Assembly (NCBI GenBank): GCA_041663645.1
Contig: JBAYMH010000002.1
Coordinates: 16,515 to 80,514, forward strand
From: Minisyncoccota bacterium
GTDB taxonomy: Bacteria > Patescibacteriota > Minisyncoccia > Minisyncoccales > Minisyncoccaceae
Length of the DNA stretch: 64,000 nt
Reading direction: 5' to 3'
Positions 1 to 3,422 of the stretch are shown piece after piece. Position 1 is the first letter of the stretch; the number at the start of each line of letters is the position of its first letter. The position numbers were made by a program, and so were the translations under genes. The notes beneath the pieces were generated by a model. The model was not told where the DNA came from. It saw only the letters and a program-made list of their open reading frames with translations, and searched no databases.

Positions 1-3000
1 TTTTCTCCTTCAATCACAAAACCTTCTGATAAATTGAAATCTATTTTTGTATCTCCCTCCCAATATAAATAGTTATACTCTTTTCCATCATCTTTATTTA
101 TAAGCTTTCCAGTGGGGTAGGCGACTACGTCCCAACCTTTATCTTTGTCATATTTGGGAATATTTTCAGTAAATTCTCCATCAAAAACAACTTTCACATT
201 TGCCTCAATCTTCTTTTCCGGATAAAGATATACCACTGGTTTTCCACAATGAATCTCGTTGACTAAAGTCACTACAATATCTCCCTTAAAATCAACACAG
301 GGCCTTTCTTCTTTTAAGTCAGAATCCCATGCATTGCATTCTAGTAATTCAAATCCTTCTGGAACTACGTAAATTTTGCTTTTTGGATTTCCTGAATTAG
401 GCCCCCCGCACATATAGTCATATTGATTACACCAGAATAAATATATTCCTTTCGTCCCAATTTGCAGATCCCATTCATCTGTTACCCAAAACTCTAAATG
501 ATTGTTGCCCGTATTTAAAAGATCTACGATCATTGGATAACCTGTAAATACTCTCGAAGATCCTCCTTGTGATTCTTTACTACCCCATTCTTTTGACTTT
601 CCATTAGTAGTATTTACTATTTTAAGTATGTCATCAACATACACCTCCGTTAATGATGTTGGTGATCCAGAAAGTTGAATTGGCGTAGATCCATCCCATC
701 GAAAATCAATTTCTCCAGCTAGTACTGTTTGGTATCTAGGCTTTGTCTGTTGCATAAATGGCTTAGCCGCTTCTTGGCTGCTATTTTTTTTACATTCCCC
801 AACGCAACTCCTGTTTTTAACAATCATTTTAATAGTACCGCCATATTGTCTTGGTGAATTATCATCAATCACATTTTCTGCCAAAATTTCTTTATTTTCA
901 GGAATAAAATCTCCGCCATCAAAATAGTCATAACGCTCAATCGTATTACAATATGAGTATCCATCCGTTGAATAGCTTGCACAACTAGAGCCGCCTTCCC
1001 CAGAACAATGACTACAGTCACATCCTCCCTCTATTCTGTCGTTTGCTAATACATCCAAGGCATTCATAGCTGCATCAACCTGCTCAATTGTGCGATTAAG
1101 ATTTCTTATCATCTGCTTAGCATAAATTTTGGTATGATAAGAAAGTTGTCCTATCGGAATCAAAGAGGGGAGAATATTACCTCTTTGCTGAATAATCTCT
1201 GTGTCTATTGCAGTGTTTTCTGCATATTGGGTAAAGTCTATAAATCCTTTCTGAAAATAATATGGCATTTGATCTCTTCCAGTATAGTAAGGGTCTACCT
1301 TTACCTTTGGATCTTCTAAAACATAAAAAGTTAAAGGGTCTCCATTGGTAGCCATTTCTTCTCCCGTGTAATATTCTCGATTGGGATTGCTTATATCACT
1401 AGAATTTAAATATGAGATACCTCCTTTGGTGTATAGACTATCATTCCAAGCGACCATTCTTTTTTTATCCATAGTCAAGCTTCTAGCGGTTATTTTGCCA
1501 GAACCACCCCCAATGCATTTTTTATCTATATCAAAGAACTTAATATTATCTCCCTGAAGAGTTGCTAAGTCTCCTCTAGAACATAAAGAAGCCTCTCTCT
1601 CATCGGCCGTTAAATCGTTATATCCGTTACCTACTATTTTCATACTGCCATCAACATGAAGATTGCTTATTGCCTCGCCTGTCCTTATTCTTATTTTTCT
1701 ATTATTCTTCTGTGCATCTGTGTACATGGCACCTATTCCATTGGCCCCCCAGTCTTCGTTAAAATCTTGTATCCTATCCGCGTCATCTTCATATACGTTT
1801 TTTTTATTCAAATTAACTGGATTGTCATAAAGAGAGCAGTTAAATTTTCTACGATAAGTAACCGTATCATAAGCGTAAGGGAAAGATAAGCTTGCCTGGC
1901 TAAATGAATATTTTTCTACTGCTTCCTGTTGAAGGTTTTGTATTTCCGCTCTTGAATATAATTCTAATCTTTTATCAGACATTAAAAATTTCTCTGTCTT
2001 TTCTAAGTCGGCTAATCTTTTTTCATAATAAATCCTAAATGACATTAACCTTTCTCTAACTGCCATGAGCGATGTTGTTTCAGCATTTCCCTTAACTTCT
2101 GGATCTCCTGCTTCTGGAAAAGCCTCGCAGTCAAAAACAATTGGAGGGGTTCCACTACCAACACCAGACGTTGGATAAGAAACAGCAGCTTCTTGAGGAA
2201 TGCATCCGACTTGGCGTTGTGCATAATCTTTCACTATATTCCCATAAACAATATAGTTAATAAATTTTCTCATGCAGTCCATAGACCTTCTTGTTGTGCA
2301 TGGGTCAAAAAGCATATAAGGGTTTTTGTCATTATAAATGTTATTATAAGAACCTTGACAACAGTCATTCCTTCCTCTTGTGCTACCACAGCACACACAA
2401 TTTGGCTGACAACAAGTTCCGCAATTAGAACAAGTACAACCGTCACGAATATACTTTTTCAATTTATTAATAATCCCTTCCGTTCCTTCAATGTTGCAAT
2501 CTGAAGTTTCAATCGCTTTTGTGCATTTAGTTGAAACATTAGGATATTTTGCCCAATTACAAATAGTTGTGTTGGGATCGTCCCAATCGTGGTAATTAGT
2601 TCCCAAAATAGTCTTTCCTGAATCGCCCAATATGCCATGAGCGGGAGTGCCGATATCTCCTATGGCTTTGGGAGAGTCAGCATCAGTATATCCAGCAGTG
2701 CCACATCTATACTTATCTCCATTTAAATAAAGTATTTTATGTTCGGCTGCTTTTAATAATTCATTTATACAAATTGAAAAATCAAGCCCCTGATATTCAT
2801 CGAGCTCAGTTATGTATCCATCTCCATTTTTATCTATGGCGTTACCGTATTCATTGTATAAATAACACCTCTCTTCTCCACTTTTATCGCCAACGTCTAG
2901 AGAAGAATAATTATATGCTTGGCTGTTAGCAGTAGAAACCGCATTTAAGATCGATTCTATTTGGGCTCCTATTGGAACCTCTACGTAAGAAACATTTGGA

Positions 3001-3422
3001 TTATCTGGGTTTATCTTATTAAGCGAATTAGTAAAACCTATATTTTCAAAGCTTGGTAACTTTATCTCTAGTATCTGAGGGTTAATAGCGGCAAGCATTG
3101 CATAAGATGAAAGCAATACGCCTAAGCCCAAAGAAATACTTCCAAATCTTTCTTTGGCTTCGACTACCTTTCCAGCATTTCCGCCAGCGGTAAGAATCTT
3201 CACTCCCTGAACAATCAATGCCCCCACTGCGATAAAAGCTCCACCAGCTATACATACATTGTAGGCATAAACAAAAAAAGTTTGATCGCCAGCAGCAACC
3301 ATTCCTGCAACAGTCGGAAAATCTCCCGAAAGAGAGACTGCTGTTACTGCAAAAACAATGTCATAAAAAAACAATAGGGGAGAAGAAAATATAATTATAG
3401 CAAGTACTTTTTTATAATTCAC
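1..3422 (-). CDS. Giant secreted/cell-surface protein, partial (C-terminus beyond the left edge): N-terminal TrbC/VirB2-type T4SS pilin-like domain fused to a >1000-aa cysteine-rich ectodomain
   Basis: Not in the supplied ORF track. My own minus-strand translation stays open from GTG at 3422 (in-frame TAA at 3434-3432 just upstream) to position 1, about 1140 codons. It starts VNYKKVLAIIIFSSPLLFF (signal/TM). Two hydrophobic helices follow, around IVQGVKILTAGGNAGKVVEAKERFGSISLGLGVLL, a pattern typical of T4SS pilins. Cys clusters come next (CTCSNCGTCCQPNCVCCGSTRGRNDCC; GGCDCSHCSGEGGSSC). The only + strand ORFs here are short antisense ones. Confidence 0.8.
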   Translation of the reverse strand, partial: MNYKKVLAIIIFSSPLLFFYDIVFAVTAVSLSGDFPTVAGMVAAGDQTFFVYAYNVCIAGGAFIAVGALIVQGVKILTAGGNAGKVVEAKERFGSISLGLGVLLSSYAMLAAINPQILEIKLPSFENIGFTNSLNKINPDNPNVSYVEVPIGAQIESILNAVSTANSQAYNYSSLDVGDKSGEERCYLYNEYGNAIDKNGDGYITELDEYQGLDFSICINELLKAAEHKILYLNGDKYRCGTAGYTDADSPKAIGDIGTPAHGILGDSGKTILGTNYHDWDDPNTTICNWAKYPNVSTKCTKAIETSDCNIEGTEGIINKLKKYIRDGCTCSNCGTCCQPNCVCCGSTRGRNDCCQGSYNNIYNDKNPYMLFDPCTTRRSMDCMRKFINYIVYGNIVKDYAQRQVGCIPQEAAVSYPTSGVGSGTPPIVFDCEAFPEAGDPEVKGNAETTSLMAVRERLMSFRIYYEKRLADLEKTEKFLMSDKRLELYSRAEIQNLQQEAVEKYSFSQASLSFPYAYDTVTYRRKFNCSLYDNPVNLNKKNVYEDDADRIQDFNEDWGANGIGAMYTDAQKNNRKIRIRTGEAISNLHVDGSMKIVGNGYNDLTADEREASLCSRGDLATLQGDNIKFFDIDKKCIGGGSGKITARSLTMDKKRMVAWNDSLYTKGGISYLNSSDISNPNREYYTGEEMATNGDPLTFYVLEDPKVKVDPYYTGRDQMPYYFQKGFIDFTQYAENTAIDTEIIQQRGNILPSLIPIGQLSYHTKIYAKQMIRNLNRTIEQVDAAMNALDVLANDRIEGGCDCSHCSGEGGSSCASYSTDGYSYCNTIERYDYFDGGDFIPENKEILAENVIDDNSPRQYGGTIKMIVKNRSCVGECKKNSSQEAAKPFMQQTKPRYQTVLAGEIDFRWDGSTPIQLSGSPTSLTEVYVDDILKIVNTTNGKSKEWGSKESQGGSSRVFTGYPMIVDLLNTGNNHLEFWVTDEWDLQIGTKGIYLFWCNQYDYMCGGPNSGNPKSKIYVVPEGFELLECNAWDSDLKEERPCVDFKGDIVVTLVNEIHCGKPVVYLYPEKKIEANVKVVFDGEFTENIPKYDKDKGWDVVAYPTGKLINKDDGKEYNYLYWEGDTKIDFNLSEGFVIEGE

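Follow-up and report, generated by a model that had tools for sequence, protein, structure and literature searches.

The TrbC/VirB2/TraA pilins of diderm bacteria are about 70 to 120 amino acids (aa) long when mature and form homopolymeric tubes with lipid, and we know of none that has a large C-terminal globular part. Patescibacteria, the candidate phyla radiation (CPR), account for a large part of the diversity of bacteria and grow attached to host cells. Their type IV secretion system (T4SS) is MPF-FATA-like, lies beside dnaA without a relaxase, and is accompanied by VirB2 arrays of 2 to 11 tandem pilin genes near virB4 that have an average identity of 25% (PMC12102498). In the same survey of Patescibacteria, no T4SS adhesins were detected so far (Quinonero-Coronel et al. 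2025; PMC12102498). The VirB2-like pilin array of Southlakia epibionticum comprises SEML1_0006-0019, and in this organism, the only species tested so far, the chromosomal T4SS and pilin-array genes are essential for epibiotic growth (Wang et al. 2023; PMC10633639). The patescibacterial T4SS, its dnaA-proximal site, and the VirB2-like arrays are thus known already (PMC10633639, PMC12102498, PMC12857230). Here we describe a gene at the left end of a 64,000-nucleotide stretch of an ultrasmall, parasitic Minisyncoccota bacterium (contig JBAYMH010000002.1, positions 16,515 to 80,514; hereafter, the window). Its product, which we call the giant, begins with a VirB2-like pilin module and continues into a large cysteine-rich part, and in related genomes it heads a conserved array of such long proteins.

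The giant is encoded by a conserved gene

Retranslation of the minus strand from GTG 3422 to position 1 gave 1,140 codons without a stop. This open reading frame (ORF) extends to the window edge, and the program-made ORF list lacks it for the sole reason that it is cut off there. Five codons upstream of GTG 3422 there is an in-frame stop, and alternative starts follow at codon 17 (TTG) and codon 41 (ATG). A database protein of 1,249 aa (P0001), encoded on a JGI metagenome contig of 165,966 bp, is 100% identical to the giant ORF. Therefore, 109 residues of the giant lie outside the window.

The orthologs of the giant form 13 clusters with 39 to 72% identity, and all of them keep the N-terminal module. 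Their starts coincide with the GTG 3422 start (MNYKK or VNYKK). The family is narrow, with 13 clusters among 5.8 billion proteins, and repeating the word-indexed homolog search with the family profile gave these 13 again and no more. Every database entry for the family is labeled "hypothetical protein." An earlier note, made by a model from the DNA sequence alone, had read the minus strand as open from GTG 3422 over about 1,140 codons. The retranslation and the identical 1,249-aa protein bear this out.

Given the window's base composition (33.5% G+C), a stop-free run of 1,140 codons would arise by chance with a probability of about 1e-35. The same fusion with the same start occurs in 13 ortholog clusters, which come from independent assemblies, including a complete genome. 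These two observations rule out a chance ORF and a chimera. In addition, the module is N-terminal in distant relatives. An artifact in the wider sense (a frame open by chance, a pseudogene, or a pilin gene joined to an unrelated gene in assembly) could draw on nothing but the GTG start, which is unusual, and the absence of an obvious Shine-Dalgarno sequence, and we regard its probability as negligible. The giant ORF is a real, conserved gene.

Residues 1 to 125 form a VirB2-like pilin module

The features of the giant given below all lie on the minus strand. The protein starts at the GTG with a Sec-type signal peptide (aa 1 to 25; 3348..3422) that has a KK pair, a hydrophobic core, and a VFA end, as judged from the alignment. 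Cleavage is predicted after A25, which is invariant, and V23 is present in at least 90% of the sequences. The signal peptide is followed by the VirB2/T4SS_pilin-like module (aa 26 to 125; 3048..3347). It consists of a conserved YP motif, helix 1 (aa ~47 to 78), a loop with the pattern TAGxNAGKVxEAKxR, helix 2 (aa ~83 to 113), and an invariant INP end. The two helices were taken from an AlphaFold2 (AF2) model of low confidence in this region (predicted local distance difference test [pLDDT] 52 to 59). The hydropathic segments of the giant are aa 5 to 33, 48 to 81, and 95 to 114, and the latter two lie around ILTAGGNAGKVVEAKERFGSISLGLGVLL, which the earlier note had quoted. The loop between the helices is net positive, with four K/R against two D/E. 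A signal peptide and then two hydrophobic helices with a short positive loop is the arrangement of a pilin. By the positive-inside rule, the ends of the hairpin would point outward, so everything after residue ~115 would be extracellular. A variable linker (aa 126 to 143; 2994..3047), evident in the alignment and modeled with a pLDDT below 50, separates the module from the rest of the protein.

Profile comparisons connect this module with the T4SS_pilin family PF18895. The Pfam model matched 11 of the 13 ortholog N termini (best E 2.9e-6). A profile built from the 13 N termini retrieved stand-alone proteins of 119 to 206 aa with E values down to 2e-17, and five of six of these had already been annotated as PF18895. 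In hhalign, the N termini aligned with independent PF18895 proteins over 105 columns with a probability of 99.6% (E 5e-25), and the overlap takes in the TAGxNxxKVxxAK loop and the INPxL exit motif. A hidden Markov model (HMM) made from those independent proteins matched the giant at 3e-20 and matched no other ORF in the 64-kb window. Therefore, on these profile comparisons, aa 1 to 125 are homologous to the TrbC/VirB2-type family PF18895 at the family or profile level.

Other classes of surface protein were tried and rejected. The giant is not a type IV pilin, because it lacks the class III signal peptide, a short leader that ends in G/A before a 21-residue hydrophobic alpha1N helix and is processed by a prepilin peptidase (PMC8179133). 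Instead it has a class I-type one with a VFA site, followed by the two-helix hairpin. An LPXTG adhesin of the PrgB type was rejected, since there is no LPXTG motif and no adhesin domain of Pfam. No VirB5/TraC-type Pfam model matched at E values up to 0.1 to 1, which disposes of a VirB5 pilus-tip protein.

In related genomes, the giant heads an array of long pilin-module genes

Six loci that bear a giant were found among 185,579 species-representative genomes. They belong to metagenome-assembled genomes (MAGs) of Paceibacterota and to Minisyncoccus archaeiphilus, a cultured parasite of archaea whose ortholog is MNSN_01240. We examined 25 kb of each (loci L004 to L009). The earlier note had suggested looking for homologs beside VirB4 in other CPR genomes, and these six syntenic loci are such cases.

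In all six loci, one non-pilin gene (about 255 to 300 aa) comes after the giant, and four further pilin-module genes of 351 to 983 aa come next. The independent HMM detects a module at the start of each of these four (E 1e-13 to 1e-27). All six loci thus contain an array in the sense of at least two pilin-module genes, in tandem or with a gap of one gene, near virB4. The five array genes stand in a conserved size order in every locus (about 13.8 to 24 kb in locus coordinates). All five are long (351 to 1,496 aa), and none encodes a short pilin. The earlier note had presented a pilin fused to a long part as an exception to pilins of about 100 aa, a premise that does not hold in this lineage. 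Within an array, the modules are 24 to 40% identical to each other. Most array members match PF18895, one of them at the gathering threshold, and the 350-aa member of Minisyncoccus also matches the TrbC/VirB2 family PF04956. One member in locus L004 (L004:20097-23036, 979 aa) has a papain-family Peptidase_C1 domain after the module (E 6.9e-21). Only the first array gene is seen in the window, the others being expected to the left of coordinate 1.

VirB2 pili and the VirB5/VirB6 stalks have five-fold symmetry. The number of array genes equals this symmetry number, possibly by coincidence.

Pilin modules with long C-terminal parts are frequent

The architecture extends beyond the family of the giant. 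An exhaustive HMMER search with a profile of aa 1 to 800 against 1.84 billion representative proteins gave 11,255 matches at E ≤1e-3, 785 at ≤1e-10, and 17 at ≤1e-30. Among the best 148 matches outside the family, the independent HMM found the module in 147, in 145 of them at the N terminus. The median length of these 148 proteins was 611 aa; at least 150 aa follow the module in 132 of them and at least 300 aa in 101. Because this ranking favors proteins that share the region after the module, the numbers indicate that the architecture is frequent and do not give a fraction of all pilins.

Fourteen to 17 proteins are distant relatives of the giant (886 to 1,331 aa; P0020-P0033 and P0037); they come from Paceibacterota or Parcubacteria bins where a source is named. 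They share the module, profile positions 1 to 240 and 309 to 553, and sometimes 622 to 885. Of 77 other long pilin-module proteins, PF18895 matched 68, and some touch PF04956. Their fused domains are SLT (three proteins), SLT_3, NlpC/P60, Peptidase_C39_2, Peptidase_C70, Peptidase_Mx1, and beta/gamma-crystallin. The module thus serves as an N-terminal carrier for cell-wall hydrolases, proteases, and ectodomains of unknown kind.

Some of these proteins deserve separate mention. The fusion of a VirB1-like lytic transglycosylase to a VirB2-like pilin is a notable combination. Two to four tandem PF18895-like modules occur in single polypeptides in 20 of the best 148 matches (P0028, P0034, P0035, P0038, P0040, and P0043 among them); one such protein is annotated in its source as "succinate dehydrogenase hydrophobic anchor subunit," probably a misannotation. 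Such proteins may be polyproteins or polytopic membrane proteins. The P0020 cluster, which has an N-terminal pilin module, comes from MAGs labeled "Candidatus Pacearchaeota archaeon" (DPANN). The label may reflect a wrong taxonomic assignment or faulty binning; it is less likely that the family occurs in archaeal episymbionts.

The ectodomain has a conserved cysteine-rich core

The giant has 36 cysteines, and not about 45 as the earlier note had estimated. All are in the part of the protein that lies in the window, and one is in helix 1. Cysteine makes up 2.9% of the giant and 0.64% of the other ORFs in the window, a 4.5-fold enrichment (P ~3e-13). Across the 13 homologs, 23 cysteines are invariant. 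Two dense clusters were found where the earlier note had placed them. Cluster 1 (aa 329 to 355; 2358..2438) reads CTCSNCGTCCQPNCVCCGSTRGRNDCC in the translation, and other family members have large insertions here. Cluster 2 (aa 801 to 825; 948..1022) reads CDCSHCSGEGGSSC...C; its length varies among the homologs in the alignment, and the model predicts it to be disordered.

The conserved cysteine-rich core spans aa 144 to 795 (1038..2993). Many polar and aromatic residues are invariant in the alignments, and the mean column identity is 46 to 56%. Its motifs are EVPIGAxIESILN, NYHDWD, RGR, DPCxxRxxDCMR, NLHVD, YYTGE..DGDPLTFY, YTGRD.MPYYF, ENxAIDTE, and GQLSYHTKIY, and it also contains a long helical stretch (aa 452 to 500). 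Near its start is an EF-hand- or dockerin-like loop, DKNGDGYITELDE (aa 197 to 209; 2796..2834), which was found by a match to the 12-residue pattern DxNxDGxIxxxD/E and is nearly invariant in the alignment. The pattern occurs once, and D197, K198, N199, D201, G202, T205, D208, and E209 are invariant. The EF-hand models of Pfam gave E values of 0.09 to 0.26 on the loop (about 12 bits against a threshold of 25). From the pattern and its conservation, we infer that the loop may bind calcium.

The earlier note could not assign the ectodomain to any family, and our Pfam, NCBIfam, and PDB searches likewise found no relative. Searches with the whole protein and with four pieces of it gave no Pfam or NCBIfam family for the ectodomain, with sub-threshold hits to EF-hand and DUF2750 only. 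Sequence-profile searches with three family alignments gave no meaningful PDB match. The AF2 model of aa 1 to 800, computed from the 13-sequence alignment, had a pLDDT of 44.8, and a Foldseek search with it against the PDB returned E values above 5 only. No fold was assigned to the core, because a model of this quality is unusable. The cysteine enrichment, the 23 invariant cysteines, and the jelly-roll-like sandwich described next suggest that the ectodomain is extracellular in character.

The C-terminal half contains a beta-sandwich and an alpha/beta domain

The AF2 model of aa 796 to 1249 (m1778bc346dea) had a pLDDT of 73.9, better than that of the core. It has four parts: the disordered cysteine cluster 2, a beta-sandwich, a short beta unit, and an alpha/beta domain. 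The beta-sandwich (aa ~863 to 1005; 408..836) is predicted to be jelly-roll-like (pLDDT about 78 to 93) and has weak structural similarity to viral jelly-roll and C1q-type domains. P0007 and P0012 contain two copies of it, and some other array members have it as well. The short conserved beta unit (aa ~1024 to 1055; 258..353), defined by the alignment and the model, has the invariant pattern ECNAW...EE...D..DIV.

The alpha/beta domain (aa ~1063 to 1239; pLDDT about 71 to 95) starts within the window (1..236) with the pattern KPxIYLYPE...RKGFTVVEWGG and is cut by the window edge at aa 1140. It contains no cysteine, matches no Pfam family, and is present in seven of the 13 homologs and absent from six. 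In structure it matches an uncharacterized Terrestrivirus protein (E 3.5e-11). A 38%-identical copy forms the end of an unrelated secreted protein of 472 aa (L010:4122-5540, MT835506.1). The source of that copy is a gut-derived contig labeled "Bacteriophage sp." and unverified, and its neighboring ORFs look bacterial. The alpha/beta domain appears to be an undescribed mobile module.

The gene lies in a conserved T4SS locus near the replication origin

The window is chromosomal and spans the replication origin region, with rnpA, yidC, and jag at 17416-19005 (minus strand), dnaA at 19586, and dnaN at 21283. Pfam models identified three T4SS genes on the plus strand, 7.6 to 10.7 kb from the giant ORF: a PrgI/VirB3-like gene (11020-11436), a TraC-like gene (11524-12288; PF26593 is recorded for its orthologs), and the VirB4 ATPase gene (12312-14093). 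The adjacent T4SS-like machine that the earlier note had invoked is thus present, and the gene of the giant is part of a conserved T4SS locus. All six loci share one gene order, which runs from VirB4 through the TraC-like gene, PrgI, a gene of 346 aa, and an SPFH/Band 7 protein to genes of 178 and 774 aa. In each of them, the giant and a small gene directly upstream of it are divergent from this run.

In the window, this small gene encodes a hydrophobic protein of 127 aa if read from its TTG (3469..3852, minus strand); ATG 3840 is the likelier start. The ORF has no Pfam match. With phmmer, the protein was matched in five of the six loci (L004-L008), and in the sixth, that of Minisyncoccus, a 127-aa gene is called at this place. 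The gene calls upstream of the giant in the related loci are 120 to 127 aa long. The small protein was considered as a second pilin, as was every other ORF of the window, and the pilin HMMs match none of them. A consensus scan of the divergent intergenic region found a strong promoter-like site (3871..3900, minus strand; TTTACA, an 18-nucleotide spacer, and TG-TATAAT; 11 of 12 matches). This site probably drives the 127-aa gene and the giant together. The 127-aa protein is thus probably cotranscribed with the giant, and it may act specifically as a partner or chaperone for modular pilins.

Between VirB4 and the giant, a 485-aa protein (6814-8271, minus strand) has a weak SPFH/Band 7 match and a positional homolog in all six loci; to our knowledge, SPFH proteins are no recognized T4SS component. 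Further large or cysteine-rich putative envelope proteins are encoded on the plus strand at 32997-35378 (793 aa, with PG_binding_1 and a T2SS-T3SS_pil_N-like stretch), 45998-50005 (1,335 aa, with PG_binding_1), 52050-55454 (1,134 aa, no Pfam match), 58235-62317 (1,360 aa, with Lamin Tail Domains), and 62489-63334 (281 aa, 5% cysteine, no Pfam match).

A proposed role for the giant and its alternatives

We suggest, with a probability of about one-half, that the giant is a modular VirB2-like pilin. In this proposal, the hairpin is a handle for VirB4-driven incorporation, and the giant is a low-copy or distal subunit that displays an ectodomain for host contact. The Sec signal peptide would be cleaved after VFA (A25). 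The helix-loop-helix would then be inserted as a membrane hairpin, with the positive loop in the cytoplasm and both ends outside. The 1,120-residue C-terminal part would be extracellular, where about 35 cysteines could form disulfides and the DKNGDG loop could bind Ca2+. The VirB4-driven machine would extract the subunit by its hairpin and build it into a pilus-like or stalk-like structure, as with VirB2/TrbC pilins. A 125-kDa head on every subunit of a packed VirB2 tube is impossible; therefore, the giant would have to be a low-copy or a distal (tip) subunit. The core, the jelly-roll beta-sandwich, and the C-terminal domain would contact the envelope of the host cell, and the sister modular pilins would add other activities, such as that of a papain-like protease. 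A putative pilus-tip or surface adhesin or effector was also what the earlier note had proposed.

Several observations weigh against this proposal. No pilus of PF18895 proteins has been observed in any patescibacterium, and "pilin" is in this case a name based on homology (PMC10633639, PMC12857230). The pilin HMM found no short stand-alone pilin in either the 64-kb window or the related loci of 25 kb. If the genome has no shaft pilin at another site, it is difficult to imagine a classical pilus that ends in a tip subunit. The giant departs from a classical pilin in two features, size and Pfam score, and agrees with it in the other testable ones. A classical pilin is a pilin over its whole length of about 100 to 200 aa; the giant has 1,249 aa, of which about 1,120 lie beyond the module. 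Its score against PF18895 is 13.6 bits for the 1,140-aa protein (E 0.072) and 17.3 bits for aa 1 to 135 alone (E 0.0051), in both cases below the gathering threshold of 26.6. The earlier note had taken the first ~120 aa for a TrbC/VirB2-type pilin and had named a pilin HMM search with residues 1 to 120 as the test. This reading stands at the family or profile level (99.6% in hhalign, 3e-20 with the HMM) and does not stand for the window sequence by itself, which stays below the Pfam threshold. Moreover, the strong conservation of the core looks more like that of a machine part or an enzyme than that of a fast-evolving, host-specific adhesin. The Pfam, PDB profile, and Foldseek searches found no binding or catalytic domain in the giant. 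Foldseek against the PDB did give a weak likeness of the beta-sandwich to GH2 sugar-binding jelly rolls (E 8e-4, TM-score below 0.2), but this modeled similarity would point to a fold class and not to a function.

The main rival to a modular pilin is a plain membrane anchor. The hairpin would then only tether a large surface protein, or fix a structural, cap-like, or cell-wall-spanning part of the T4SS, and would never be extracted or polymerized. The signal peptide and the hairpin topology would suffice to place the ectodomain outside without any action of the T4SS. The lack of a short shaft pilin in the examined loci and the strong conservation of the core, which suits a machine component, are also in line with an anchor, and proteins with two to four tandem pilin modules resemble polytopic membrane proteins and not filament subunits. 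However, one transmembrane helix or a lipid anchor would do for tethering, and in every locus the genes stand together with VirB4, VirB3, and the remaining T4SS-like genes. In addition, the PF18895 motifs (TAGxNxxKVxxAK and INP) are kept across five paralogs and thousands of proteins, which suggests that the hairpin is recognized by something. We therefore consider a plain anchor or a fixed machine part possible, if rather unlikely.

Alternatively, the module may be a carrier that targets the protein to the T4SS or the membrane, with the ectodomain being cut off in the linker (aa 126 to 143) and released as an effector or toxin that acts on the host. TrbC-type pilins, such as TrbC of RP4, are known to be processed proteolytically at the C terminus. 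A cut of this kind could fall in the variable and probably disordered linker, and the sister hydrolases (Peptidase_C1, SLT, and NlpC/P60) could act at a distance. However, the linker alignment has no evident conserved cleavage motif, and no dedicated maturation protease was identified beside the gene. A Sec signal peptide alone exports a soluble effector in a monoderm, so that the hairpin would be superfluous. We consider a released effector possible but unlikely.

The modular-pilin proposal can be carried one step further, to a version that we think improbable. The giant and the four modular pilins, in one copy each, would form a single five-subunit layer. This hetero-pentameric "tool head" would sit distally on the secretion channel and would bind and open the host envelope. 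The target would be the sheath or wall of a methanogenic archaeon, and the PF18895 hairpin would be the general display or export handle of the patescibacterial T4SS. Such a tool head, if true, would be a new class of T4SS tip organelle, and it would explain why Patescibacteria, alone among monoderms, keep arrays of VirB2-like genes.

If pilin modules routinely carry large ectodomains, these are obvious candidates for host recognition and envelope attack. The candidates comprise the cysteine-rich giant and the proteases, lytic transglycosylases, and NlpC/P60 hydrolases of related proteins. The idea lends itself to direct testing, because Minisyncoccus archaeiphilus, grown in co-culture with Methanospirillum hungatei, has the ortholog MNSN_01240. 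The single giant is of less interest than the pattern that it reveals and the existence of this ortholog in a cultured parasite-host pair. Surveys that use the Pfam threshold undercount modular T4SS pilins. The result also carries the "modular pilin" idea over from type IV pili to a filament family that is unrelated to them.

Comparison with known systems

The TrbC/VirB2/TraA pilins (PF04956) share with the giant a signal peptide, two helices with a basic loop, termini that are outside (as predicted for the giant), and VirB3 and VirB4 neighbors. They differ in their setting, since the bacterium that carries the giant is a monoderm and its locus showed no VirB5, VirB7, VirB9, or VirB10. VirB5 tip proteins and the PrgB LPXTG adhesins serve a T4SS by contacting the target cell, which is the role that we propose for the giant. 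The Pfam searches found no sequence relation of the giant to either, and it would be anchored by a pilin-like hairpin and not by a sortase signal or by noncovalent binding at the tip.

Modular pilins have been described for the type IV pili of Streptococcus sanguinis, in which PilB carries a vWA module and PilC a lectin module (Raynaud et al. 2021; PMC8179133). Like the giant, these proteins join a small pilin module to a bulky module through a short linker, for display on a filament. The bulky subunit fits only at the tip or in low copy, and one system has several modular pilins. However, type IV pilins of S. sanguinis have a class III signal peptide, processing by PilD, and a single N-terminal helix, whereas in the giant a class I-type signal peptide precedes a two-helix hairpin. 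The T4SS pilin fold is unrelated, and the likeness is one of analogy and not of homology.

The closest systems are the published patescibacterial arrays. Like that of the giant, they consist of PF18895 proteins near dnaA, with MPF-FATA-like VirB4, PrgI, and TrsD/TraC-like genes and no relaxase seen. Both are made of tandem divergent paralogs, with 24 to 40% identity here and an average of 25% in the survey (PMC12102498). The giant falls below the cutoff of that survey (i-Evalue below 0.001), which would therefore not have counted it (PMC12102498). The searchable literature yielded no description of a VirB2-like module fused to a large ectodomain. The published arrays have been treated as small pilins, whereas every member here has a C-terminal ectodomain of 230 to 1,370 aa. 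We infer from the sequences that the new element is a modular T4SS pilin, a module joined to a large ectodomain, which would be a variant of the patescibacterial pilin arrays with a proposed function in display.

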